A stretch of DNA of 64,000 nt, taken from positions 6,276,850 through 6,340,849 of the forward strand of contig OZ241986.1 in NCBI GenBank assembly GCA_965204375.1. The letters are read 5' to 3'. Positions 45,983 through 64,000 of this stretch are shown here, one piece after another (position 1 is the stretch's first letter; each line of letters begins with the position of its first letter). A program made the translations under genes and the position numbers. The notes beneath the pieces were generated by a model. The model was not told the DNA's origin, did not search any database, and saw only the letters and a program-made list of their open reading frames with translations. The DNA comes from Candidatus Latescibacterota bacterium (GTDB lineage Bacteria; Latescibacterota; UBA2968).

Positions 45983-47125
45983 TTATTTCATTTGTTCGAT
46001 TTCGCGCTCTGCGGCCTGTACGCCGCTTCTGGTGTCGTGTACGGCGATGGTGAGGTCGCAGTGATAGGTTTCGTCCCCGTTGAGTGTGATGACGCGCCCG
46101 GCGTCGCGTTCAACGCTTTTGGCGTTGGGATAGTTGGTGGCGGGTTCGAGGCCTACGACATATCCATCTCGCGTTGCTGCGGTGTTTTTCCAGAGGGTAA
46201 AATACGGCATTTGTTTGAGTGCGTAGTGGAGCGAAGACCCTATGTTGCCTTCGGCGTTTTTGAGGAGGACAGATGTGTTGCCTTCGCTGTTGCCAGCGAG
46301 TTCGTAAAAATAAACTTGTTCGATATAACCCGGGGTGGGGCCGAGGCATTGGTCGAATGTGTTGACGCCTTCCTCTGCGCGTGGGTCGCGTGGGGAGACG
46401 GTTTTGTGCGGTGTTACGATGGATGCGCCTTCTTCGAGGAGGGGTGCGCCGTAGTTACAGTGGTAGAGCAGTTGCATTTCAGCGGGTTTGTCGTTGAGGT
46501 TGGTGACTTGATCGGCTATGGTGAAGTTGTTGCTGCCGAGTTCTGTCGATATGGTTGTGGCGAGGCGCAGCGCGGGACCAAACATCATGGTTTCATCGAC
46601 GATGCCCAATACGGTGATGCGATGGGGTGGTGTCAGGTCGATTTGTATTTCGACATAGCGCGCGGGTATGTTGGCGATTTTGCCGTGCAGGGGGACAAAG
46701 ACTTCGGCTTCGTTGCCGTTGTTGTCGATTACGATGTCGTTGCCGGGTGCGCCATTGCTGTCGAGGCCGCAGCGTACGATCCATTCGTTAAAGCCTTTGA
46801 GCCATCCCAGGCCGCCCCGGTCATTGAGTTCGATAAAGGCCGGGTTGACGAGGTCGCGCACGGGTGATTCCCAGCCGAGGGAGATACCGCGATAAGTGCC
46901 TTTCCATATTCCCATGCCGCGCGTGGGAACGATGAATACAGAGAGTGCCCCGTTGTCAATTTCAATGAGGTCAACCCCTTCTTGTACGCCGCCTTTGAGG
47001 GCGGTTTTTTGCACGCGCCATGTGTGTTCTGTGCCAAGTGGTAAGATGGATTCATCGATGGTCCACGATTCTGTCCAGAGTGCGCGTTCGACATCGGTGA
47101 GAACGAAGCGATAAGTGCCTTCCAT
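45983..47125 (-). CDS. Aldose 1-epimerase-like / DUF4432 family protein
   Basis: PTRGMGI, LGWESPV, PLHGKIAN, LLYHCNYG, GLEPATNYP. Confidence 0.85.
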   Translation of the reverse strand: MEGTYRFVLTDVERALWTESWTIDESILPLGTEHTWRVQKTALKGGVQEGVDLIEIDNGALSVFIVPTRGMGIWKGTYRGISLGWESPVRDLVNPAFIELNDRGGLGWLKGFNEWIVRCGLDSNGAPGNDIVIDNNGNEAEVFVPLHGKIANIPARYVEIQIDLTPPHRITVLGIVDETMMFGPALRLATTISTELGSNNFTIADQVTNLNDKPAEMQLLYHCNYGAPLLEEGASIVTPHKTVSPRDPRAEEGVNTFDQCLGPTPGYIEQVYFYELAGNSEGNTSVLLKNAEGNIGSSLHYALKQMPYFTLWKNTAATRDGYVVGLEPATNYPNAKSVERDAGRVITLNGDETYHCDLTIAVHDTRSGVQAAEREIEQMK

Positions 47126-51430: not shown

Positions 51431-51551
51431 ATTTTAAGCCAGCAGAAGGATAATGATTATGCCGAGCACTGCCAATCCACCGAAAAAGACGACACAAAAA
51501 CCTTTGATAAACCCGCCCACAAAGCCATTGTTGTCATTATTATTCTTTATG

Positions 51552-51956
51552 TTACTCCCTCCCTTCAATATCGTCGCGAACAAAGCCATGAGTAGCCTTC
51601 AGCAGAACGGCTGGTAGCCGTTTCAGTTTTTCATTACGCGGGTCAACCTCGAATCCACCGGATTCCAAAGCAGTAACGCCGAGCAATGGTTCCGCCCCTT
51701 CTTCTCCATATACAATGGTCCCACCGACGATTTCTCCCTCGAATTCGATCTCGGCGATGGTTATATCCATGTCCACAGGATTTCCGTCTGCAAGTACGTA
51801 AGCGCGGCTACCCCTCGGTTCGAGTCCAATTTCTTCGAGACGCACTCTCGGCACGAGCGAGTCGAACGCGCCAGTATCGACTAAAAATTTGCCAGTCCAG
51901 CTACGTTGTCGGTCTGCGGGATTGCGGATTGTGACGTCAACATAAACCGCGGACAT
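51552..51956 (-). CDS. Clan AA (retropepsin-like) aspartic protease
   Basis: FLVDTGA, LADG, PLLGVTALE; AGGA RBS before MSAVYV. Confidence 0.85.
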   Translation of the reverse strand: MSAVYVDVTIRNPADRQRSWTGKFLVDTGAFDSLVPRVRLEEIGLEPRGSRAYVLADGNPVDMDITIAEIEFEGEIVGGTIVYGEEGAEPLLGVTALESGGFEVDPRNEKLKRLPAVLLKATHGFVRDDIEGRE

Positions 51957-52063
51957 GGTAGTTTTCCTATCGGGTTGGTTGCGGACAGCTTCTATCTGAA
52001 GGTATAGGACAAAATTGAGTATTACCACAGGAACAGAATATGGGAAAACGGACCGCAATGCAA

Positions 52064-52100
52064 TGCCCAATCCTTGTTCGACTGAAATATCTCTAATGAG
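52064..52100 (-). repeat. Degenerate solitary CRISPR repeat
   Basis: TGCCCAATCCTTGTTCGACTGAAATATCTCTAATGAG; 29/37 identical to the 52412 repeat. Confidence 0.8.
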
Positions 52101-52240
52101 TGGGCGGCAAGAAGTGGCTGAAGGTGGCACTGGAAATCAATGGACGTATCGGGAGTGTAAAAAATGTCAATGTGGCGCGGACGGCGGGGGTGCTGGAACG
52201 ATACAACCTCGACGAAGATCGGTACAAAAAAATAGCCCAT

Positions 52241-52328
52241 TAGGCACTGTGACGGGATTCGAACCCGCACACGAGCTCGGACAATTTTTCCGACCTCCGC
52301 TCTACCAGTTGAGACCTACACAGTGCCC
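52241..52328 (-). ncRNA. tRNA-like RNA (non-canonical, tRNA-Phe-like backbone)
   Basis: GGCACTGTG/CACAGTGCC acceptor, CTC-AACTGGTA-GAG D-arm, GCGGG-TTCGAAT-CCCGT T-arm, elongated anticodon-position arm, no CCA. Confidence 0.75.
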
Positions 52329-52342
52329 TGTGAGCTGTCAAA

Positions 52343-52371
52343 ATAATACAAAATTCTCCAAAAGAGCACAA
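52343..52371 (-). promoter_or_regulatory. Sigma-70 promoter for the tRNA-like RNA
   Basis: TTGTGC-17 nt-TATTAT, ending 14 nt upstream of the acceptor stem. Confidence 0.55.
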
Positions 52372-52411
52372 CCCAAATGTGGAGACGGTAGGAGTTTAAA
52401 AAACAAAAGCT

Positions 52412-52520
52412 GTTTCAATCCTTGTTCTACTGGAATACCTCTATTGAGAAGCGGCAGGGCTACAAGAAGGGCGAAGTAAAGGGGTTTCAATCCTTATTCT
52501 GGTGGAATGTCCTTATGAGG
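52412..52520 (-). CRISPR. Detached repeat-spacer-repeat unit with degenerate repeats
   Basis: Repeats at 52412-52448 and 52484-52520 with a 35-nt spacer. Confidence 0.85.
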
Positions 52521-52556
52521 CGTAGCGGCGGCTATCTCTGGTGTGTTATCGAATGA

Positions 52557-52700
52557 CTAAGGCGCAAAGAACTTTAGCACCACCAGAACGGCGACCAGCA
52601 CAATAAGAACGGTCAAACGCTTTTCGATCCTGCCCATGTGCTGGTTGAAATTATCCACTTCGCGCAGGCGTCTGATTCTCTCGCGGTCGTCTTTGTTCAT
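52557..52700 (-). CDS. 47-aa small membrane protein encoded between CRISPR repeats
   Basis: GGGAG RBS right after a repeat; MNKDDRERIRRLREVDNFNQHMGRIEKRLTVLIVLVAVLVVLKFFAP* (translated by hand). Confidence 0.65.
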   Translation of the reverse strand: MNKDDRERIRRLREVDNFNQHMGRIEKRLTVLIVLVAVLVVLKFFAP

Positions 52701-52713
52701 GGCGAATCTCCCA

Positions 52714-55700
52714 GTTTCAATCCTTGTTCTGGTGGAATACCTCTGAGAATATCAGGCAGTGGGCGCAGGAGCTTGGCGTCACTGTCGTTTCAATCCTTGT
52801 TCTGGTGGAATACCTCTGAGAATGAGATAGTGCGGGGCAGCCCCTCCAGGTCGCACTCCGTTTCAATCCTTGTTCTGGTGGAATACCTCTGAGAATTCCG
52901 CACGATCCTGTGTCCACATCTAAATAAGGAGGGTTTCAATCCTTGTTCTGGTGGAATACCTCTGAGAATTCCATTTTTAATCGCGATGCATGCAGCCAGA
53001 ATACCATGTTTCAATCCTTGTTGTGGTGGAATACCTCTATTGAGCCGTATTGCCCTGTTTGCTTGCCTTACGCGCATGCTGTTTCAATCCTTGTTGTGGT
53101 GGAATACCTCTATTGAGTGGATATTGCTGGTAGAGAGCTTGCACATCATCTTGTTTCAATCCTTGTTGTGGTGGAATACCTCTATTGAGACAGACGGGAG
53201 AGTAGAGGAATTTCCCCATGATGTGTTGCAGTTTCAATCCTTGTTGTGGTGGAATACCTCTATTGAGGGCGCCGGCAGTAGTCTTTTGTTTCTTTTTACC
53301 GGGTTTCAATCCTTGTTGTGGTGGAATACCTCTATTGAGCATTGCTCCATGCGTCGGAACCCGTCAATTTATCGGCACGTTTCAATCCTTGTTGTGGTGG
53401 AATACCTCTATTGAGTAACAAGCTCCAGCTGGAGTGGAAACAAGTTAAGGGTTTCAATCCTTGTTGTGGTGGAATACCTCTATTGAGGCAAGCTGGCCAG
53501 CGGCGGAAGCACCAGCAGCGAGTTTCAATCCTTGTTGTGGTGGAATACCTCTATTGAGGCGTGGGCGAACTCGACGAGAAAACGACAGAGCAGGAAGGTT
53601 TCAATCCTTGTTGTGGTGGAATACCTCTATTGAGTCATATCAACGGATCCTTCCAGAGCTACCACAGGCAAGTTTCAATCCTTGTTGTGGTGGAATACCT
53701 CTGAGAAGATGGGTCGTCTTTCGCCACGCGCCACAGGTTGTTATGTTTCAATCCTTGTTGTGGTGGAATACCTCTGAGAAGATCATCTGAGTCAACATAA
53801 ACATCGAGACAAAACCCGGTTTCAATCCTTGTTGTGGTGGAATACCTCTGAGAAGTTTCCGATAATAGTGCGGATATTCTGCGCCCTTGCAGTTTCAATC
53901 CTTGTTGTGGTGGAATACCTCTGAGAAGCACGTCACTAATCGTTTTTGTGATAAGACCGATATAGTTGTTTCAATCCTTGTTGTGGTGGAATACCTCTGA
54001 GAAGGCTTTGTTTCGCTTGCTGTGTAACGGAACAGGTATTGTTTCAATCCTTGTTGTGGTGGAATACCTCTGAGAAGCGTATGCGACAAGACATCTATAC
54101 GCGCCGTGACCGGTTTCAATCCTTGTTGTGGTGGAATACCTCTGAGAAGGAAACCCACCACACCAAGCCCATCACTCTTTCCATGTTTCAATCCTTGTTG
54201 TGGTGGAATACCTCTGAGAAGGGGGTGAAAGACTACATCACCGTCACTCATGCTCTTGTTTCAATCCTTGTTGTGGTGGAATACCTCTGAGAAGTCACCC
54301 GTTGGTGACAATAAATTTCGATGATGATGCAGTTTCAATCCTTGTTGTGGTGGAATACCTCTGAGAAGTGATGTAGTGGATGTAGTTGCACTCGGCGACT
54401 GCACGTTTCAATCCTTGTTGTGGTGGAATACCTCTGAGAAGATAGACATCGTTGGCTACATCATAATAATACCTCGCAGCGTTTCAATCCTTGTTGTGGT
54501 GGAATACCTCTGAGAAGCCAAGAGCGTCGGCGGCAGCCTGAGGAGGCCACTATGGTTTCAATCCTTGTTGTGGTGGAATACCTCTGAGAAGTGGATCCAC
54601 CACCCCATTTCGGGACCCACCCATCACGGGTTTCAATCCTTGTTGTGGTGGAATACCTCTGAGAAGTGCAGATGCGTTGCCGCCGTCCACGATGTACCGT
54701 CCGTTTCAATCCTTGTTGTGGTGGAATACCTCTGAGAAGTTACCGAAACGGTAGAGGGCAGGTCGGGTTTTTAATGTTTCAATCCTTGTTGTGGTGGAAT
54801 ACCTCTGAGAAGGGAAGGAATACCAAAAGCACTGGTAAGCCGACGGCGTTTCAATCCTTGTTGTGGTGGAATACCTCTGAGAAGAATACGAATACCTGTA
54901 CGCTCCTCAAATTCAACAGGTTTCAATCCTTGTTGTGGTGGAATACCTCTGAGAAGCGAGCCCACTGACCATAAGGCATATACGCATCATCGTTTCAATC
55001 CTTGTTGTGGTGGAATACCTCTGAGAAGAAGGTGAAGCCCCAGCCTTACCGTTCTTCTGATTGGTTTGCTGTTTCAATCCTTGTTGTGGTGGAATACCTC
55101 TGAGAAGTTTAGCGAAGCTGGTGTTATTATGATATTTATGATGTTTCAATCCTTGTTGTGGTGGAATACCTCTGAGAAGCAAGACCATTTTGACCGCTGG
55201 TGCTGCTCCGGCTGCGTTTCAATCCTTGTTGTGGTGGAATACCTCTGAGAAGATGGTGGGTGTTGCTCGCGCTAGGTATGGTCTCGACGCTGTTTCAATC
55301 CTTGTTGTGGTGGAATACCTCTGAGAAGCACCGGCCATTTTAAGATTCTCCTACATGAGAACCAGGTTTCAATCCTTGTTGTGGTGGAATACCTCTGAGA
55401 AGTCCCAAGAGATATGGACGCTGACGGACCTCGGGAGGTTTCAATCCTTGTTGTGGTGGAATACCTCTGAGAAGCGTGTGCTACCTACGGTCTCCATCGT
55501 CGCGAGCGTCGGAAGTTTCAATCCTTGTTGTGGTGGAATACCTCTGAGAAGTGAAGTGATGGACGATGCGCAGATCATATTTAACCTCGAGTTTCAATCC
55601 TTGTTGTGGTGGAATACCTCTGAGAAGAAGCTCGGTGCCTGCGCCCAGGTGGTTTATCCCTGTTTCAATCCTTGTTGTGGTGGAATACCTCTGAGAAGCC

Positions 55701-57022
55701 AAAGCAACCATCCAGCAGGCGAGCAGAATGATTACACACGGTTTCAATCCTTGTTGTGGTGGAATACCTCTGAGAAGCAAAAACGAATATGTCAACTTTT
55801 GGATCCATCTGGTTTCAATCCTTGTTGTGGTGGAATACCTCTGAGAAGCACAAGGGTATTCGTATCACCAGGCGCACCACCTTGTTTCAATCCTTGTTGT
55901 GGTGGAATACCTCTGAGAAGCCAGATCGTCCTGTTCGGGCGTGTACATTGTGATAGTTTCAATCCTTGTTGTGGTGGAATACCTCTGAGAAGCAAGACGA
56001 GGAAGCCTTTTCGCGCGATATGCTACACGGTTTCAATCCTTGTTGTGGTGGAATACCTCTGAGAAGATTGACTGAAGGGTTGCCTTTCAGGATGTACGGC
56101 GGTTTCAATCCTTGTTGTGGTGGAATACCTCTGAGAAGAGTGAAGGGCGCAAAGGATAATAGCACCGCACACACGTTTCAATCCTTGTTGTGGTGGAATA
56201 CCTCTGAGAAGCGCTTAGAAATGGTCGTCGCGTGATCGCGCTGGCAGCGTTTCAATCCTTGTTGTGGTGGAATACCTCTGAGAAGTGGTTTTGGAGAATT
56301 TTTATAGGAGAATTGTAATGAAGTTTCAATCCTTGTTGTGGTGGAATACCTCTGAGAAGTATATGCAGAAGGCCAGGAATCCACCCCACCACCCAAGTTT
56401 CAATCCTTGTTGTGGTGGAATACCTCTGAGAAGTTCGCGCAGGACCTCCAGGCGCTCGCCAGGATCGTGTTTCAATCCTTGTTGTGGTGGAATACCTCTG
56501 AGAAGAATAGATTTCGGATCTGCAAAAACTTCTGGATTGTCGTTTCAATCCTTGTTGTGGTGGAATACCTCTGAGAAGAAAACCAGTCCACGAATAGCAT
56601 GCTGGCGACGCATCTGTTTCAATCCTTGTTGTGGTGGAATACCTCTGAGAAGGAAGATGAGGAGGACGTGCTTCGCGCGTACGGGAATCTGTTTCAATCC
56701 TTGTTGTGGTGGAATACCTCTGAGAAGCTCTTGCGTGATCTGTAAGATGCGGGCTAATCGCTGTTTCAATCCTTGTTGTGGTGGAATACCTCTGAGAAGA
56801 CTCGTTTTCGTGGACGCACAAAAAAAGCCCCAGCAGTGTTTCAATCCTTGTTGTGGTGGAATACCTCTGAGAAGTTGAGGTACGACTTTGCTTTTTTCAT
56901 AATCTTACCCCCGTTTCAATCCTTGTTGTGGTGGAATACCTCTGAGAAGCCGCGGATTTCGGGCGGACTTTCACGTATCGCTATGGTTTCAATCCTTGTT
57001 GTGGTGGAATACCTCTGAGAAG
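52714..57022 (-). CRISPR. CRISPR array, 59 repeats of 37 bp / 58 spacers (hand count)
   Basis: Consensus on minus strand CTTCTCAGAGGTATTCCACCACAACAAGGATTGAAAC (ATTGAAAC 3' end); spacers ~34-42 nt; three repeat-variant blocks. Confidence 0.98.
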
Positions 57023-57193
57023 CGCATTTTATGTATATCGTTTGAAACAACAACAGGTTACGCGAATTGACTGACGGACAAAATCTCGGTTTGATATGTC
57101 TTTTTTACTTCTAAACGCAGACATTTTGCTCTCCTTTGCAGAATGGAATTTTTCCAACGTATTGATTTTCAATGGATTACACCATTGTTGTTC
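57023..57193 (-). promoter_or_regulatory. CRISPR leader
   Basis: AT-rich non-coding region between cas4 and the first conserved repeat. Confidence 0.75.
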
Positions 57194-57790
57194 TTATACG
57201 CAAATATTTTTATAGCAACAGTCACTACACTTGGCGCGGTGAGGTGTTTTTTTGGGCAGTCGCCCGGTTTGAATAATGTCGAGAATTTCAGCCACAATTT
57301 GTTGTGCGGTGATTTCTTCTGCCTCTCCTATCGGAACTTCTGCCAGGCGACTTCCACCGCGAATATATGCAATATATCCACGGGACACGGACTTTTGATA
57401 GGCTTCGCGAGCCAGCAGCCCGTAGAGTATGATTTGAATGCGATGGGTTTTGAAAGCGTGCTCGCGATAGGGTGAATATTTGTAATCCAGAGGCGCGAGA
57501 CTGCCATCTTGCAGGGTCAAGACTTCATCTACAATCCCACGCACACCCAGGCTGGGCGATGCCAGGTACACATTGAGGTCGCGATCAACAACGCCGATTT
57601 TTTTGCGAAGATAAAATCGGTTCTCTTTTTCCCGGCGTTTGTGAACTTCGCGGCCTTTGAGTACTTTGAAGCGGCGATCTTCAAACTGCGGGATATTGAG
57701 CACATTCATATAGTAGGTAAAACGCGGACAATAGATATGCTCAATCACCTCCGATGGCGTGATCATGATGGTTGTTTCGGTATCGCTCAC
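57194..57790 (-). CDS. cas4: CRISPR-associated exonuclease Cas4
   Basis: YCPR, GIVDEV, PLDYK, QIILYG, C-terminal CSDCCYKNIC. Confidence 0.93.
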   Translation of the reverse strand: MSDTETTIMITPSEVIEHIYCPRFTYYMNVLNIPQFEDRRFKVLKGREVHKRREKENRFYLRKKIGVVDRDLNVYLASPSLGVRGIVDEVLTLQDGSLAPLDYKYSPYREHAFKTHRIQIILYGLLAREAYQKSVSRGYIAYIRGGSRLAEVPIGEAEEITAQQIVAEILDIIQTGRLPKKTPHRAKCSDCCYKNICV

Positions 57791-58092
57791 AGGAACATGC
57801 TCCTCACGTCATCCGTAACCATTTTCTGGTCAAATGCCTGGCCCTGCAGGATCACTTTGCGAAAATCCATCATGCACATGGGAAAGATGTACACGCTGTC
57901 GGTTTCCTCATCAATCTGGTCTTCAATACGCATTGAAAGTTCGTCCAGGCGGTTGTGTTTGACCGTGCCGAGAAAGACGGATTTTTGAACGCGATAAAGT
58001 CCAGCTTCTTTACAGGCTTTGACCACATGTCGGCGGCTTTTGTCGTTAGAAATGTCGTAGAGTATCCAGGTGAGCGATTCATCGGATTTCAT
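57787..58092 (-). CDS. cas2: CRISPR-associated Cas2
   Basis: ILYDISNDKSR, RVQKSVFLG, DSVYIFP. Confidence 0.93.
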   Translation of the reverse strand: MKSDESLTWILYDISNDKSRRHVVKACKEAGLYRVQKSVFLGTVKHNRLDELSMRIEDQIDEETDSVYIFPMCMMDFRKVILQGQAFDQKMVTDDVRSMFL

Positions 58093-58099
58093 GGGCTTG

Positions 58100-59113
58100 T
58101 TACTCCTGTTGTGTGTCTTGTGGCAGCAGGTCATTTGCGATGCGGTGCAGATCGAATTGGATGCTGTCTCGCCGCGTGATGTTGCGCCCTCGATAGCGAA
58201 TGGCTGTGTCGAGATAGTCGGTAAATGCCTGGATGAGTATGGCTTTGCCCTCTTTGTTCAGGGTGAGGCCATTTTTTAATTTGTCGAATTGGTCTTGTTT
58301 AATTTTTCGCGCTGAAAAGAGGCCGAGAACGGTTTCGTCAGCCCAGATGCGATATTGTTCGATGAGATCAAAAATGAGAGAAGGTTTGTTGTAGTGATCG
58401 GTGTGGATAAAGCCGATGTAGGGATCGAGTCCCGAGAGCAAACAGGCGCGTTCAACGATGCCGTAAAGCATGCCGTAGCTGTAATTGAGCAGACAGTTGA
58501 AAGGGTCTTTGCCCGGGTTGCGGCTGCGACCTTCAAAGCGGTGATGGACGGGTAATAGCAGGGATACCGCCGCCCAATAGGTGCGCCCAGCGCGACCTTC
58601 AAGACCGAGCAAGCTCTGGCGCATGGTGTCGATACTGCTTGTCTCCGTATCAGCACATGTATTGCTTGCGAGGTCCTGCGTTTGCTCTTTGAGGGTTTTT
58701 AGACTGCCAATGGCTTCGGTAAGTGGTGCTGAAAGCCGCGTGCGACGGTCGCGCATGCGCGTGAGCAATGCAATCTGATTGTCGAATTTGCGCCCGATCC
58801 AGCCGAGGGCGAGTTGAACGCCGAGGTCGGTTTGCGCTGCTGCGAGTTGCATGCGGCGAATGGCTGTTGTAGAACCCGGTCGTCCGTGCCATACGCGCCC
58901 AAAGGGGTCGCCGTATTTGTCGAGAAAGAGGATGTCGATATTCTTCTCCACGGCAAGTTGAACCGCATCTGACGAAAACGCGGCTCCCGTTGAGATGAGA
59001 ATAGAGCGCACTTTGCGAGCGGAAATTTCAGTCGATTGGTCCTTCACTTTGATCTGAAACAATTCTCCCCGCCGACTCAAATATGCGCCATAAGTGTTGA
59101 GTACGAGTTGCAA
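58100..59113 (-). CDS. cas1: CRISPR-associated Cas1
   Basis: AGGAG RBS + TTG start; LEGRAGRTYW, NCLLNYSYGMLY, GLDPYIGFIH, LIFDLIEQYR. Confidence 0.95.
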   Translation of the reverse strand: MQLVLNTYGAYLSRRGELFQIKVKDQSTEISARKVRSILISTGAAFSSDAVQLAVEKNIDILFLDKYGDPFGRVWHGRPGSTTAIRRMQLAAAQTDLGVQLALGWIGRKFDNQIALLTRMRDRRTRLSAPLTEAIGSLKTLKEQTQDLASNTCADTETSSIDTMRQSLLGLEGRAGRTYWAAVSLLLPVHHRFEGRSRNPGKDPFNCLLNYSYGMLYGIVERACLLSGLDPYIGFIHTDHYNKPSLIFDLIEQYRIWADETVLGLFSARKIKQDQFDKLKNGLTLNKEGKAILIQAFTDYLDTAIRYRGRNITRRDSIQFDLHRIANDLLPQDTQQE

Positions 59114-59197
59114 AATGTTCTCCTGGGGATAATACCGAAGCACACCTGTTCATCACAAGCGTTCACAAAACAAATTTGATGGTGTAAAACTTGAAAC

Positions 59198-59225
59198 TTG
59201 ACATTTTTATGGTATTGGTTATAAT
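59198..59225 (+). promoter_or_regulatory. Consensus sigma-70 promoter, antisense to the cas operon
   Basis: TTGACA-16 nt-TATAAT, both hexamers perfect. Confidence 0.8.
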
Positions 59226-60154
59226 AGAATTGCCAGCGGACGAAATTCGGCTCCATAGCCGTGTGATTGCCGGGCTGCGGTTCGCGTAATCCTATATCCC
59301 TGGCTTTTTTCATTTTCTCGCCACACCAAAGCCGCTGCATTGAGCGGCTTTTTTTGTGTGTAATACACGCCATAGCCTGCCTCTCGTCTGTCATCGATAT
59401 CGTGTACGATCCGAAAAGCCCGCCACAGATACTTCACATACCGATCTTCTCCGCGTTCATAGAGCCTTTGTAAAGCCCAGACGAAATAATCCACAGCTTG
59501 TAAACCACCTTGCTCTTGCGGGGTTGACACAGATACTTTTAAGACCCCATCGCCTTCCGCGTTCTGTTGTTTGACAAAACGGTCTTGGGCAGTTTCAAGT
59601 GCCTGACGCAGGGCAGCAGTGCGGTTTGATCGACCTCGTTTTGAAAAGATAATATTATATCTACTGTTCTGATGTAGTCTTTCTTTGAACAGACGCCCTA
59701 TCAGATAATCGTAAAGTTCATTGGGGTGATAGCGATAGGCAGGAGTGCTTTCATTGCGTTGGCGAACATAGTCCAGTACGCGCCACTTGTCAGCAACCAC
59801 AGCAAAGAAGCGCAATCCTTCAGTGTCGCGTAAAATCCGGAAAACATCTCGTCGCACTTCGGGCAAATCGTCTTTGGCATGAAAGGCAATAGCTGTTTTT
59901 CGGACCTTTGCTTGCATGGATGGCACATCTTTGAAATATGAATCGTTCACCAGCCGCCCCCTCAGGTTGTCTAAGGCATGGTGTAATGTAGCTGGATCAG
60001 GCACATCCAATAGGCCGAGTATGAAAAATCGAGAACACCCTGACGTGCCGATCAGGACCTTTCCTTTGCTGGAGAACAACGTGCTATCTCCGCCTTCATC
60101 TATAAAATAGTAACGGATTGAAGTCTGTTTCTTTTGCAACGGCTTATTCTCCAT
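59219..60154 (-). CDS. DUF3800 domain protein (RNase H-like acidic motifs)
   Basis: YFIDEGGD, FFILG, FHAKDD, GLQAVDYFVWAL. Confidence 0.8.
   Translation of the reverse strand: MENKPLQKKQTSIRYYFIDEGGDSTLFSSKGKVLIGTSGCSRFFILGLLDVPDPATLHHALDNLRGRLVNDSYFKDVPSMQAKVRKTAIAFHAKDDLPEVRRDVFRILRDTEGLRFFAVVADKWRVLDYVRQRNESTPAYRYHPNELYDYLIGRLFKERLHQNSRYNIIFSKRGRSNRTAALRQALETAQDRFVKQQNAEGDGVLKVSVSTPQEQGGLQAVDYFVWALQRLYERGEDRYVKYLWRAFRIVHDIDDRREAGYGVYYTQKKPLNAAALVWRENEKSQGYRITRTAARQSHGYGAEFRPLAILL
59232..59310 (+). ncRNA. Structured small RNA, candidate DUF3800-associated RNA
   Basis: Starts 7 nt after TATAAT; 5' GCCAG pairs with 3' CTGGC, followed by T6; two internal hairpins. Confidence 0.7.
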
Positions 60155-60207
60155 AAAACGCCCTGTTCAGTACTTTGTCTCTCTCACTGACATAAAAGCC
60201 CTCGCTG

Positions 60208-60288
60208 TCAATTTCCCCTCATCTTAACCTGAAACAATTCCCCTCGCCGACTCAAATACGCGCCGTAAGTGTTGAGCACGAGTTGCAT
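60208..60288 (-). pseudogene. cas1 5' stub (26 aa)
   Basis: MQLVLNTYGAYLSRRGELFQVKMRGN* duplicates the cas1 N-terminus. Confidence 0.85.
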
Positions 60289-60293
60289 TTTAT

Positions 60294-60325
60294 GTTTAGT
60301 CCTTGTTCTGTTGGAGTGCCTTTTT
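60294..60325 (-). repeat. Degenerate array-type repeat overlapping the cas1-stub RBS
   Basis: + strand GTTTAGTCCTTGTTCTGTTGGAGTGCCT vs array GTTTCAATCCTTGTTCTGGTGGAATACCT. Confidence 0.7.
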
Positions 60326-60335
60326 AAAGGCCGTC

Positions 60336-60364
60336 TTGCTCTCCACACACGTGGGGATGAACCG
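60336..60364 (+). repeat. Solitary type I-E-like CRISPR repeat
   Basis: TTGCTCTCCACACACGTGGGGATGAACCG, 29 nt, with I-E hairpin and ATGAACCG 3' end. Confidence 0.7.
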
Positions 60365-60412
60365 AGTTTCCATCCTTATTTTTTTGGAGCAATTCTCGAT
60401 ATAGAAGTGACA

Positions 60413-62719
60413 TCAGAACATCCTCAGAGCATCATCTTGCTTTATAAATTGACCGCCCAAATGATCGTCATATTCCATTTCACAAAATACGATGTCCCCA
60501 TTTTCTGGATCTCTGAATTCATTCTCTTTAACATACCACGCGGGCATTTTGAGTTCATATTCGCGTCTGTCTCTGGGGCTTTCACTCTCTAAGACTTCAT
60601 CACGAAAATCTAACGGGATAACACTTAGCTGAATATATGTTTCTAAACGGGTAAGACGTTGTTCATCATCTTTTATAGGATCTAACATACCGAGAAATTT
60701 TCTTTGGTCATCGTCAACCAGGCTGATAGAATGCTTAAAACCCTCATGGACATCTATACGCTGGTTTTCGTACACTTTTTCGACAATATCTAAAAGTTGT
60801 TGCTCCGTAATATCATGGCCTTGATATTTCGAAAAAATATCAAAAGAACGTTTCAAAAGGCGTTCTTCGGGTTTTTGTTCAGTGCGTATATCATCAAAGT
60901 AAATGCGGTCTGATCCCGGTCCTGGCTGAAAAATGATCACTTGACCATTACGCTCTCGTTTGCGGTTGATTCGGCCTGCGCGTTGTGCTACTGCGTCTGG
61001 CGGCGCACACTCCGTAAACAAAATGTCGAAATTGATATCTAAAGCGACTTCAACTACTTGCGTTGCAATAACCAGGGAAGGATTTTCTTCAAGAATTTTC
61101 TTTTCCTTTTTTTTCCGATCTCTCAAGATAAACTTTGAGTGATAACAAATGGGATCAAAGTCTGCCAACGCTTGTGCAATTTCCTGACAACGTGCAACTG
61201 TATTTACTACAACGAGAACACGTTTGCCTTTGTCAGTCTGGTTGCGAATTTCTTGAAGATGGTTCAACAAATCTTCATCAACGGTTTGATAACGACTGCG
61301 TGCGGCTTGAAGCAATTCCTGATCGCGGACGATTTCTACCGGTGCAGATTTCTCAAGCAAAGATTGAAACATCTCAACCAGAGAACTGGGAAATGTCGCG
61401 CTCATAATCATAAACCTTGCTCCAACCGCTGCAAGTTGCTCAATCGCTTTGCATATCAAGCCCGTGGTATAGGGATCGTAGGAATGCACCTCATCCAACA
61501 CGATTGCAGAATCCTGGGCCGCAAATGTTTTTAACGGCCAACGACCACTATGAAAAAGCGTGGTTAGTAATTGATCCACTGTACCTACTGTAACGGGAGG
61601 AAAAAAGTGGCGATTGAATAACAAATTTCCGTACAGCTTAGATTCTCGTCCTGTACTCTCTTGATTTTCTTCTTTACGCAAAATGAGGTCGGCCATTGAA
61701 TGCGTCAAGCCAACGTGATGGTTATGAGTCGAGAAGAATTTTTCCATACGGTCATGAAGGCTGTTGGCTGTCACCATAGTGGGAAGCAAGTATAAAATTT
61801 TGCTCACATCCCTTTGCTTGATTTGGTTGAGTGCCCACAAAAGGGCAGCTTCTGTTTTTCCACTTCCCGTAGGTGCGACAGCAATAATGTGTCCCTTTAT
61901 TTTTCCACAATTTTCCTGAAATGCTCTAAATCCAGCATAAGATCCTCCGTCCTCTTCAACTTTTCGCTGCAAATATGGTGCGACCAAATCAGGTCCAACC
62001 AGAACATTTGTCGCATAATCTGGATCATTCGACGACGCACACCAATCAGCCGTCATAAGCAATCCCTTCATCAGAACGAATAACTCGCGTGCAGATGAAT
62101 AGTCAGAAACGTATTTATGTAGTTCCCTTGCGAAATTGCATACGGACTGCTTGTGTGCAACTTGAAAACATTTTTCAAAATCAATTTTAGGGTACGGAAC
62201 GCCGTAATCATCAAAGATTTTTTGTGCAACGCGCTTTCCCTCCGCTAAACTGCCCGGTTTCCATTTCAGGCTTTCGGGATTATTTCGCTCGCGTTCAAAA
62301 CGACTGAGGTCTGTATCAACTGTTTTATGATGTCCCAAAACGGCCATGGCTTCCAAAGGAATATGCGGATTTTGCTTGAGCAAAACACCTGTTTCTCTGT
62401 TGAGGCATAAAATAGCAGACCTTACGAAAGCAACTGATGCATATTCATGCCTAAAATTGGCAACCATAGCACGATGGCGTTCAGCATTCGACACAGCACG
62501 CATCATGCGTTGAAAGTTGGCGGACAACTTACCCATATCGTGAAGCGCGACCGTGAGCAGAGACCGGATAAGAAACCGGTCTCTATCCACTTGATGGCGT
62601 TGACAGATACGTTCAATGAGTGCCGCATGTCTCTCTATTAAGTTTTTCCAGGCCAAATAAACCTGCCAGACATGCTGTTCATAACATTCATTGGGACGGC
62701 ACTTAGCAAGAAAAATCAT
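60413..62719 (-). CDS. cas3: CRISPR-associated helicase/nuclease Cas3
   Basis: HD domain (LHDMGK), APTGSGKT, LDEVH, MSAT, ATQVVEVALDI, QRAGRINR. Confidence 0.95.
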   Translation of the reverse strand: MIFLAKCRPNECYEQHVWQVYLAWKNLIERHAALIERICQRHQVDRDRFLIRSLLTVALHDMGKLSANFQRMMRAVSNAERHRAMVANFRHEYASVAFVRSAILCLNRETGVLLKQNPHIPLEAMAVLGHHKTVDTDLSRFERERNNPESLKWKPGSLAEGKRVAQKIFDDYGVPYPKIDFEKCFQVAHKQSVCNFARELHKYVSDYSSARELFVLMKGLLMTADWCASSNDPDYATNVLVGPDLVAPYLQRKVEEDGGSYAGFRAFQENCGKIKGHIIAVAPTGSGKTEAALLWALNQIKQRDVSKILYLLPTMVTANSLHDRMEKFFSTHNHHVGLTHSMADLILRKEENQESTGRESKLYGNLLFNRHFFPPVTVGTVDQLLTTLFHSGRWPLKTFAAQDSAIVLDEVHSYDPYTTGLICKAIEQLAAVGARFMIMSATFPSSLVEMFQSLLEKSAPVEIVRDQELLQAARSRYQTVDEDLLNHLQEIRNQTDKGKRVLVVVNTVARCQEIAQALADFDPICYHSKFILRDRKKKEKKILEENPSLVIATQVVEVALDINFDILFTECAPPDAVAQRAGRINRKRERNGQVIIFQPGPGSDRIYFDDIRTEQKPEERLLKRSFDIFSKYQGHDITEQQLLDIVEKVYENQRIDVHEGFKHSISLVDDDQRKFLGMLDPIKDDEQRLTRLETYIQLSVIPLDFRDEVLESESPRDRREYELKMPAWYVKENEFRDPENGDIVFCEMEYDDHLGGQFIKQDDALRMF

Positions 62720-62721
62720 CG

Positions 62722-62752
62722 GTTTTCATCCTTGTTCTGCACAGGTGCTTTT
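62722..62752 (-). repeat. Degenerate array-type repeat overlapping the cas3 RBS
   Basis: + strand GTTTTCATCCTTGTTCTG vs array GTTTCAATCCTTGTTCTG (16/18). Confidence 0.6.
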
Positions 62753-63457
62753 TCAACGCAAAACCACCTGATAGTCATTGATCACAAATCCATCAACTGG
62801 CTCTGAAAGCGAGATTTTATTGCCCACAAACGTAAAGGGTTCGCGTGTTTGTACGGTTCGTCTATCTCCATCAAAAGAAAACGATACAGGCAGATTCGCC
62901 GTTGAGGTCGGGCGAATCTTTTGGGTCATAGGCAAGTCCAAAATACTTTCATCAGGCTTATAGAGTTGGGCAATATCGCCAGGCACCACGCAGTTCTCCA
63001 GGTTTTGTAGAGGTATGGGATCGGTCTCCAGAACTTCGATATTTCGCAGGTAAATCAAACTGTCGCTATGCCCGGCAGTAAGTGCATATACCGGATCATG
63101 AAACCCATTAGCAACTACATCAGCCGCTTCTTTTGACTGCGTGCCGTAAACAACCAGACAGGTTAAATCCACGCGATATTCTCGAATCAGAACATCCGAA
63201 ATTGTTTCCTTGCTGTTTACCTTGCGATATTTCCACAAATCTCGAAACTCCCCACGATCATGCCCCGCAACTCCAACGGATATGCTATTTTCTACAACAT
63301 AGCTTTGGGCAGACTCCATATCCAGACCGAGAGCAGCACCGAGCAAACCCACACAGGTAGTATATGGCGGCAATGCCAGAGTCTTGTGGAATGTATGGGT
63401 TTCCGCAGTTCTAAATGACGCGGTTTCAGCATACATCTCAAGGGCGACGAGAAACAT
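62753..63457 (-). CDS. cas5: CRISPR-associated Cas5 (type I-B-like)
   Basis: ASFRTAET..FHKTLALPPYTTCVGLLGAALG. Confidence 0.88.
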   Translation of the reverse strand: MFLVALEMYAETASFRTAETHTFHKTLALPPYTTCVGLLGAALGLDMESAQSYVVENSISVGVAGHDRGEFRDLWKYRKVNSKETISDVLIREYRVDLTCLVVYGTQSKEAADVVANGFHDPVYALTAGHSDSLIYLRNIEVLETDPIPLQNLENCVVPGDIAQLYKPDESILDLPMTQKIRPTSTANLPVSFSFDGDRRTVQTREPFTFVGNKISLSEPVDGFVINDYQVVLR

Positions 63458-63460
63458 AAT

Positions 63461-64000
63461 TTATGCTCCGTTCTGACCGTAACAAGACTGGACCCATTCT
63501 TTAATTTGTGAAAAAGCATCACCGACTGTTTTGGTCTCGTCGGGAGTGCCTTCAAATAAACCCGTACGGGAACCGAACACCGATCCGAGCACAACATTTT
63601 TATGATCTTCTAACACCTCTTCAAGCATCGCGCTACTTACTATCCTGCCTTGCACTTGAACGGATTCGAGAAAAATTGGGGCTTTAACCGTTGTAATAGC
63701 CGCAGCGACAAATTTGGGACTCAGATCCGCCAAGAATCGACTTTGACGGCCAGAACTCCACAAATTTTGCAATGCATTGAGCAGGGCTTCTACGCGCTCA
63801 GATTTTTCCTTATTATCTATGTCATTCTCAAATTCTTCGCCAGAACCAATGCGATCCAATTCGATCAAAATTGTACCGCGATAAAGCCCGCCATGTATTT
63901 CAGTTTCAAAGATGTTGGGATTTCCTCCCGCTTCTACACCCATATAATTGGTTCCAAAGTCCAGATCACCCTGGTAGGCACCTTGAGCGACCAAAGGTGA
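63461..64000 (-). CDS. cas7: CRISPR-associated Cas7 (Cst2/DevR-like), 5'-truncated by the window
   Basis: NIFETEIH.GLYRGTILIELDRIG, GRQSRFLADLSPKF; directly upstream of cas5. Confidence 0.82.
   Translation of the reverse strand, partial: SPLVAQGAYQGDLDFGTNYMGVEAGGNPNIFETEIHGGLYRGTILIELDRIGSGEEFENDIDNKEKSERVEALLNALQNLWSSGRQSRFLADLSPKFVAAAITTVKAPIFLESVQVQGRIVSSAMLEEVLEDHKNVVLGSVFGSRTGLFEGTPDETKTVGDAFSQIKEWVQSCYGQNGA

Follow-up and report, generated by a model that had tools for sequence, protein, structure and literature searches.

The stretch of DNA considered here (the window; 64,000 nucleotides (nt) of contig OZ241986.1 from a Candidatus Latescibacterota bacterium, numbered from its first letter) contains a CRISPR array at 52412-57022 on the minus strand, which consists of 61 repeats of 37 nt and is the sole array with this repeat in the 6.34-Mb genome. 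All 59 other spacers of the array are 34-42 nt long; the lone exception is a gap of 193 nt at 52521-52713, which holds a candidate gene for a small membrane peptide and is the subject of this article.

Read on the minus strand, the gap begins with TGGGAGATTCGCC and continues with an ATG start codon (52700-52698) that opens 47 codons, a TAG stop codon (52559-52557) and 36 further nt (52556-52521). The 5' untranslated region of 13 nt (52701-52713) is made up of a T at 52713, a Shine-Dalgarno-like GGGAG at 52712-52708 and 7 nt in front of the ATG. The open reading frame (ORF) together with its stop codon occupies 52557-52700, and the tail that separates the stop codon from the following repeat, a diverged copy called repeat D below, has the length of a spacer (52521-52556) and may formerly have been one. 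The initial annotation of this DNA had given the same anatomy, from the last regular repeat through ATG, 47 codons, stop and 36 nt to another repeat, and both the sequence and the repeat map reproduce it exactly.

The product of the ORF, MNKDDRERIRRLREVDNFNQHMGRIEKRLTVLIVLVAVLVVLKFFAP, is predicted to be a single-helix membrane peptide with a C-terminal anchor. Nine Lys or Arg and six Asp or Glu are found among residues 1-28, the Kyte-Doolittle means are near 3 over residues 28-47, and AlphaFold2 without an alignment modelled a single helix over residues 3-45 with a predicted local distance difference test score (pLDDT) of 91, in line with the basic N-terminus and the one transmembrane helix that had been read from the letters. 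With 47 residues and one predicted helix the peptide falls into the range of small membrane toxins (less than about 60 residues). Look-alikes in the Atlas reached a best score of 0.85, and phospholamban 0.80, which are to be taken as leads only. In codons 38-41 (52580-52589) there is an exact inverted copy of 10 nt of the repeat core, matched by 3 of 200 shuffles, so that the messenger RNA (mRNA) could pair with repeat RNA; the 10-mer may be a by-product of the Val and Leu codons.

A complete ATG-initiated ORF of at least 47 codons appeared on the sense strand in 150 of 5000 dinucleotide shuffles (3%), in 93 of 5000 when a start within 20 nt of the 5' end was also required, and in 164 of 5000 random genomic 193-mers; by itself the length of the ORF is unusual, not decisive. 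Codon usage carries more weight: the in-frame codon log-odds amounted to 0.240, compared with 0.238 +/- 0.122 for segments of long host ORFs, and the other five frames gave values from -0.06 to -1.10. This codon score was reached by 1.5% of 667 spurious ORFs of 45-70 codons. Two AGA codons occur in the ORF and they are not adjacent. The unit RNA folds no better than its shuffles (z = 0.2-0.3), so a structured non-coding RNA is not indicated and a coding role fits better. Taking the Shine-Dalgarno motif, the host-like codon usage and the predicted membrane helix together, all of them on the strand that has the sense of the CRISPR RNA (crRNA), the earlier description of the gap as a complete mini-gene stands.

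Apart from the window's own protein, the word-indexed search of 5.8 billion proteins returned one relative, P0002, which is 98% identical (H21R), and P0002 was the only match in a full HMMER scan of 1.84 billion representatives. In a six-frame search of 40 related genomes the best E-value for the ORF was 0.4, and none of the pattern matches obtained in scans of genome, viral and metagenome contigs was confirmed. Among 50,697 phage records there was a 25-nt chance match at the DNA level and no protein match, while 72,556 plasmid records and IMG/VR gave no match, absence from such collections being no proof; no family was found in Pfam, PHROGs or PADLOC. As far as sequence comparison reaches, the ORF is an ORFan. 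Near-identical copies were recovered from two public sequencing runs. Run X4 yielded a contig of 318 nt that spans 52497-52744 and differs at one position (H21R); run X8 yielded one of 685 nt that spans 52491-52744 without gaps and differs at nine positions. Six of these nine lie inside the gap (one in the tail, two synonymous, two in codon 6 producing R6Q, and one producing H21R). In both runs no change affects the hydrophobic half of the peptide, and the frame is unbroken in all three assemblies, those of the window genome, X4 and X8. Homologs confined to phages, which the initial annotation had considered, did not turn up in the collections searched.

The array itself is composite. Counted from the leader it comprises three blocks of repeat variants, with 46, 10 and 4 repeats; its regular part (52751-57022, minus strand) holds, in plus-strand spelling, the 46 repeats that end in GAGAAG, the 10 that end in ATTGAG and three of the four that begin with GTTCTGG and end in GAGAAT. 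The last regular repeat (52714-52750, minus strand) has two differences from the consensus, and its 3' 8 nt are ATTGAAAC at 52721-52714. Beyond the third block follow, all on the minus strand, the 193-nt gap, repeat D (52484-52520; 9 of 37 positions differ), a 35-nt spacer (52449-52483), repeat E (52412-52448), an oversized unit of 311 nt (52101-52411) with a transfer RNA (tRNA)-like element at about 52236-52335, a relic terminal repeat F (52064-52100; repeat family D3), and then flanking genes in a stretch that is conserved across the genus. The distal part of repeat D resembles the repeat variants of other species of the genus, the repeats of genomes G015 and G020 ending in CCTTATGAG. It was also observed that the last 6-12 nt of the repeat (plus strand) vary between array blocks and between species, and judging from these sequences the block-wise variants suggest that array segments were exchanged by recombination. 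In the X8 contig the letters before repeat D are those of the flank that precedes relic repeat F in the window (52043-52064); thus the ORF unit is terminal in the X8 array, and repeat E, its spacer and the tRNA-like unit do not stand in between. The trailer of the window array is flanked by a hydrophobic ORF of 51 residues (51434-51589, minus strand) and an ORF for a retropepsin-like aspartyl protease (51552-51957, minus strand), which are syntenic in G015 and G009.

The array was read on the minus strand because the repeat ends in ATTGAAAC there, because the Rfam model CRISPR-DR7 aligns on this strand (28.8 bits, which is below the gathering score of 37), because the diverged repeats sit at the low-coordinate end, and because the leader adjoins the minus-strand genes cas4, cas2 and cas1. 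This leader is an A+T-rich stretch of 171 nt (57023-57193, minus strand) delimited by the sequence and the repeat map between cas4 and the first repeat, and its role is presumed from its position. The cas operon, assigned through Pfam, occupies 57194-64000 on the minus strand and includes cas7 (truncated where the window stops), cas5, cas3, a DUF3800 gene, cas1, cas2 and cas4; it crosses the genome coordinate origin, with cas6b and a WYL-domain (WYL/helix-turn-helix) regulator just upstream. Both the Cas6b_N and Cas6b_C domains were detected above the Pfam cut-offs at L060:1024-1683 (minus strand). Cas7 was recognized by NCBIfam as type I-B Cas7/Cst2/DevR (102.5 bits against a cut-off of 72.75), and no Cas8b profile matched, which is why the system is called type I-B-like. 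The frame of cas7 (window 63461-64000 plus L060:1-1020, minus strand) stays open for 340 codons further across the coordinate origin without a family match, and this extension may represent a fusion or else a large subunit of very divergent sequence. The DUF3800 gene between cas3 and cas1 (59219-60154, minus strand) corresponds to DUF3800_VII of PADLOC (E = 8e-16).

No promoter or terminator was found on either strand between 51900 and 53100 in a scan covering the sigma-70-type consensus only, so the unit is probably transcribed by read-through of the precursor crRNA (pre-crRNA). There was no sign of self-targeting: matches between spacers and the rest of the genome do not exceed about 18 nt (at most six consecutive 13-mers), and those between spacers and the unit do not exceed 10 nt. 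When a guide of the CreA type was sought, 14-nt seeds taken from the D-E spacer and from the 36 nt with which the unit begins, with up to two mismatches allowed, matched only themselves in the cas locus, and their exact 14-mers matched only themselves genome-wide. In RNA library X5, from a coral sample, a 38-nt repeat contig (52713-52750) has a depth of 2725, far above its neighbours, which is not proof of transcription. The contigs of X5 and X6 hold the tRNA-like unit and repeats only and leave 52519-52694 uncovered, which does not count as absence. The repeats recovered from the RNA library are those of a relative and carry no information on this ORF.

Oversized gaps are not confined to the window. 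Seven arrays of its own genus were viewed, leaving out the trailer of G012, the array of G013 (its repeats are on a separate contig) and that of G017 (140 repeats). The trailer of G015 contains gaps of 165, 214 and 175 nt and that of G002 gaps of 182 and 1538 nt, and the arrays of G001, G009, G014 and G020 have none. These gaps in G002 and G015 hold tRNA-like elements homologous to that of the window and a leader-like A+T-rich stretch, and in G002 also an ORF of 454 residues (L062:283-1647, minus strand; no Pfam family) bounded by a degenerate repeat on one side and the terminal relic repeat on the other, so the cargo there is not limited to mini-genes. Besides the window copy (52236-52335, minus strand) the tRNA-like element was found at L062:1798-1979 in G002, at L055:1930-2094 and 2132-2345 in G015, and in a contig of the coral sample. 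It combines an acceptor-like stem, a D-arm-like GGTAGAG and a T-arm GGTTCGA.TCC, its fold has a z-score of -4.8, and by eye the changes that distinguish the stems of G000 and G002 seem to compensate each other; neither ARAGORN nor Rfam called a tRNA in these elements. Elsewhere in the window ARAGORN reports an 82-nt tRNA-Lys with anticodon ttt at 46084-46165 (plus strand), and Rfam reports no window tRNA at the gathering threshold. Since the trailer gaps of the relatives hold cargo and the flank is conserved, the trailer can be regarded as a site where cargo accumulates between repeats.

In the wider order the repeat family of the window is present in 26 of the 41 genomes searched, G000 included; the counts for relatives refer to the loci inspected and are not whole-genome surveys. 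A sister family carries pairs and strings of repeats spaced 219-246 nt, whose gaps contain a crRNA-sense ORF of 58-67 residues. These ORFs are mutually homologous and share the motif W[HR]xDGTP..Y..AG.P.P....L..WA (alignments A2 and A3; loci L020 (G037:C12:9000-14800), L019, L018, L028, L053 and others). When 53 genomes of the order were searched with a profile, 14 proved to encode this mini-protein. All 14 belong to the sister family, where one genus contributes 13 of 15 genomes and another 1 of 2; the 30 genomes of the window's own family gave none. Among 26 distinct copies there are 17 whose ATG stands 2-5 nt past a repeat's 3' end, the letters of the linker varying. In the remaining nine, the first in-frame ATG has no repeat within 60 nt of it. 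A Shine-Dalgarno-like motif of their own is present in at least three of these nine, and in two cases it is GGGAGA-N7-ATG as in the window. The downstream repeat, where found, mostly starts close behind the stop codon, some copies read into the repeat, and frameshifts or stops interrupt several. Of five genomes checked, four have the units on the strand of cas1, at 2.4-24 kb downstream of this gene, and one has them on another contig. A large protein collection contains 15 clusters of the mini-protein, all unnamed or hypothetical; no viral relatives were found, no family was recognized in Pfam, PHROGs or PADLOC, and its model (pLDDT 80) matched no entry of the PDB (best E-value 4.3). Other ORFs between repeats of the sister family have 96-107 residues or are ordinary genes, and a hydrophobic ORF of 29 residues in a 121-nt gap of G025 (L053:1714-1803, minus strand), whose ATG follows one repeat at 25 nt and whose stop precedes the other by 6 nt, is a second small hydrophobic ORF in such a position, unrelated in sequence to the 47-codon ORF. 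The suggestion that small genes are linked to repeats thus extends beyond the window, as the mini-protein family and further bracketed ORFs recur in relatives.

On the basis of these data we propose, with a probability of roughly one half, that the 193-nt interval is not a spacer but a gene cassette captured in the array trailer, which would be co-transcribed with the pre-crRNA and released by Cas6b. The cassette would have entered through recombination at repeats, for example by integration of a circle with one repeat that leaves its cargo between two repeats, a process that would also explain the assorted cargo in the relatives. Transcription starting from the leader would read through the pre-crRNA and include the unit as its tail. 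Cleavage by Cas6 in type I-B systems leaves an 8-nt 5' handle (PMC8501985), and by analogy the 3' 8 nt of the last regular repeat would form the handle here. Cas6b would then cut 8 nt before the unit and again inside repeat D, giving an RNA of about 230 nt that starts with AUUGAAAC as its crRNA 5' handle, continues with one base and GGGAG, and ends in repeat D. The connection to Cas6 made in the initial annotation holds to the extent that cas6b belongs to the same operon; the release of the mRNA is still a proposal. Translation would yield the 47-residue helix, inserted into the membrane by its C-terminal anchor, and the peptide is most likely a small membrane-active toxin or modulator, which is a guess from its size and shape.

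Several points weigh against this proposal. For this organism it draws on sequence and prediction, not on expression; the read-through may be weak at the far end of a 4.3-kb array, and the unit may have a promoter of its own, as the scan was restricted to the sigma-70 consensus. The relatives of the ORF are near-identical copies only, so that deep conservation is not demonstrable, and a DNA search shows the ORF to be missing from the 20 other species of the genus. The runs X4 and X8 may represent the same or a very close species, in which sharing of a trailer unit is expected anyway, and two to three synonymous versus two replacement changes are compatible with neutrality (about p = 0.13 in a hand calculation). 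In addition, the spurious ORFs of the codon control were drawn from alternative frames of genes and not from intergenic DNA, which makes them an imperfect null.

A rival reading is a non-functional relic, in which foreign or rearranged DNA is stranded in a decaying composite trailer, with the ORF being a chance frame or a dead gene. The ORFan status, the location at the far array end beside diverged repeats and a second oversized unit, the missing promoter-like site, the insignificant substitution pattern, and the assorted material in the trailers of relatives, including broken copies of the mini-protein gene, all point in this direction. However, ORF length (3%) and host-like codons (1.5% of spurious ORFs) are together hard to obtain by chance, the whole start context and the stop codon are contained inside the unit, and the frame has stayed intact in three assemblies with all changes outside the hydrophobic half. 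We consider the relic rather unlikely, though it deserves to be kept in mind. An old leader was also considered as the source of the gap, and it was rejected since the gap, the 311-nt unit and the leader share no similarity beyond shuffles.

A further explanation, which appears improbable to us, takes the unit for a guard toxin gated by Cascade at the level of translation, in the manner of CreTA: Cas5 and Cas7 assembled on the handle would mask nt 2-6, the Shine-Dalgarno motif, and nt 14-16, the AUG, and the peptide, produced only upon loss or inhibition of Cascade, would harm the cell. Small hydrophobic peptides are a common type of toxin, and the start signals lie at most 16 nt from the handle. 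The sister family offers some parallel, with its ATG 2-5 nt behind the handle in 17 of 26 copies in spite of the varying linker, and with its units on the strand of cas1 and 2.4-24 kb downstream of it in 4 of 5 genomes; guard logic as such has been described for type I systems (CreTA; PMC8501985). Nevertheless, both the toxicity and the occlusion are purely hypothetical. The conserved protein of the sister family is hydrophilic and unlike a toxin of the membrane. Its fixed ATG distance could simply have been passed on with a unit of repeat plus gene, and the ORF is missing from the 20 other species of the genus, of which 12 match the repeat pattern. The boldest generalization can be given little credence at present: repeats in this order would bracket small coding cassettes at or beyond array trailers, from which Cas6 would make separate handle-led mRNAs, and Cascade would hide the start so that peptides are made only upon Cascade failure. 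The start codon, which follows the handle at no more than 16 nt (at 2-5 nt for the gene of the sister family), would be hidden by Cascade assembly, which would amount to a CRISPR-Cas guard at the protein level combined with a cassette system that spreads by recombination at repeats.

The initial annotation had itself offered two other origins, and neither was borne out. Acquisition of an oversized spacer from a phage or plasmid gene by the adaptation machinery would fit the position directly after a repeat, where a spacer would stand. It is very improbable, given the 193 nt against 34-42 nt in the other 59 spacers and the host-like codon usage, and given that a random fragment would not hold a whole gene with start signals and stop. 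No protospacer or gene relative was found at the DNA or protein level in the phage, plasmid, IMG/VR, genome and metagenome contig collections, with the reservation on absence made above, and the gap is not a recognizable piece of a phage or plasmid gene. The loss or decay of internal repeats from several spacer-repeat units, with the ORF arising from the remains, is hardly credible, because a profile of the array's own repeats finds no remnant on the sense strand of the gap and only 0.8 bits on the antisense strand, within the shuffle range (maximum 2.6), the positions misfit a periodicity of 36 plus 37 nt and the codons are host-like, so that only a weak repeat-like stretch inside the ORF in gapped local alignment (10 of 200 shuffles reach its score) and the inverted repeat-core 10-mer at 52580-52589 (3 of 200 shuffles) speak for it.

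If the captured cassette is real, arrays can carry and express genes, Cas6 can serve as an mRNA-processing enzyme, and Cascade loading could gate translation. Such loci would make it possible to test directly by what means CRISPR systems are kept or policed in cells, and would supply natural parts for the control of genes at the RNA level. Array finders and gene callers handle such units inconsistently, which is why they are probably under-reported.

Type I toxins such as Hok, TisB and AapA1 have fewer than 60 residues, one membrane helix and a charged segment. The 47-residue peptide shares their size, the single predicted helix and the charged segment; it differs in that no sequence family match exists in Pfam, PHROGs or PADLOC, and no antisense RNA gene is evident as far as the scan for the sigma-70 consensus shows. 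In integrons, short genes are strung together as cassettes with a repeated site at the border of each, but the window array has neither an integrase nor attC sites. Engineered Cas6 or Csy4 sites cut mRNAs apart, and a site placed before a coding sequence gives it a defined 5' end; for the natural CRISPR repeats described here this would be an analogy only.

Close to the window unit among the known non-immune uses of repeats is CreTA, the CRISPR-repressed toxin-antitoxin RNA pairs of type I systems (PMC8501985, PMC9458426, PMC10097628, 10.64898/2026.06.02.729485). Common to both are an element with a Shine-Dalgarno motif and a start codon beside diverged repeats in a type I locus, the 8-nt Cas6 handle and, as an idea, a toxin tied to the integrity of Cascade; the unit of the window has a regular repeat on one side and a diverged one on the other, at a distance of 4.3 kb from cas4 in an I-B-like locus. 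CreT, however, acts as an RNA, has a mini-ORF of 4-6 rare codons and resides among the cas genes, whereas the unit has 47 codons with an average host codon score and lies in the array trailer. The CreT promoter is repressed by the crRNA-like antitoxin CreA, a guide whose pseudo-spacer matches this promoter in part next to a protospacer-adjacent motif, and for the unit no guide-to-promoter match was found; the D-E mini-array beside it is missing in the X8 contig. A CreTA module as defined was rejected, there being no guide seed match, no spacer on the unit and ordinary codons.

Standalone repeats and mini-arrays (10.1101/2023.03.03.530964, 10.1101/2024.10.29.618823) are likewise non-immune repeat-derived elements in or beside CRISPR-cas loci, but they are non-coding crRNA-like guides whose gaps measure 15-60 bp. 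Repeat-like matches overlapping ORFs were left out of the survey on standalone repeats (10.1101/2023.03.03.530964), so ORF-holding units of 120-330 bp would be missed by it. Solitary repeat units of viruses, or RNA anti-CRISPRs (PMC10651486), also place repeats outside the normal spacer context; they are described as occurring in viruses and acting as RNA decoys, whereas the unit of the window is chromosomal, stands by its own cas operon and has no viral relatives. A mobile element with a repeat beside a gene could nevertheless be the donor of a repeat-bracketed cassette by recombination.

In the literature, as represented by titles and abstract openings (supplements could hold such loci), neither protein genes bracketed by CRISPR repeats nor tRNA-like elements in arrays are described. 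The closest non-immune uses, namely CreTA, the mini-array regulators and the viral solitary repeats, are non-coding or nearly so, and there is a small chance that the cassette is something categorically new. Arrays are taken for stores of spacers only, and what is known so far of non-immune uses is non-coding (CreA, CreR, viral decoys). A complete protein gene placed between repeats would therefore be a new use of the CRISPR repeat, and so would a conserved gene family whose start codon is fixed a few bases behind the crRNA handle.

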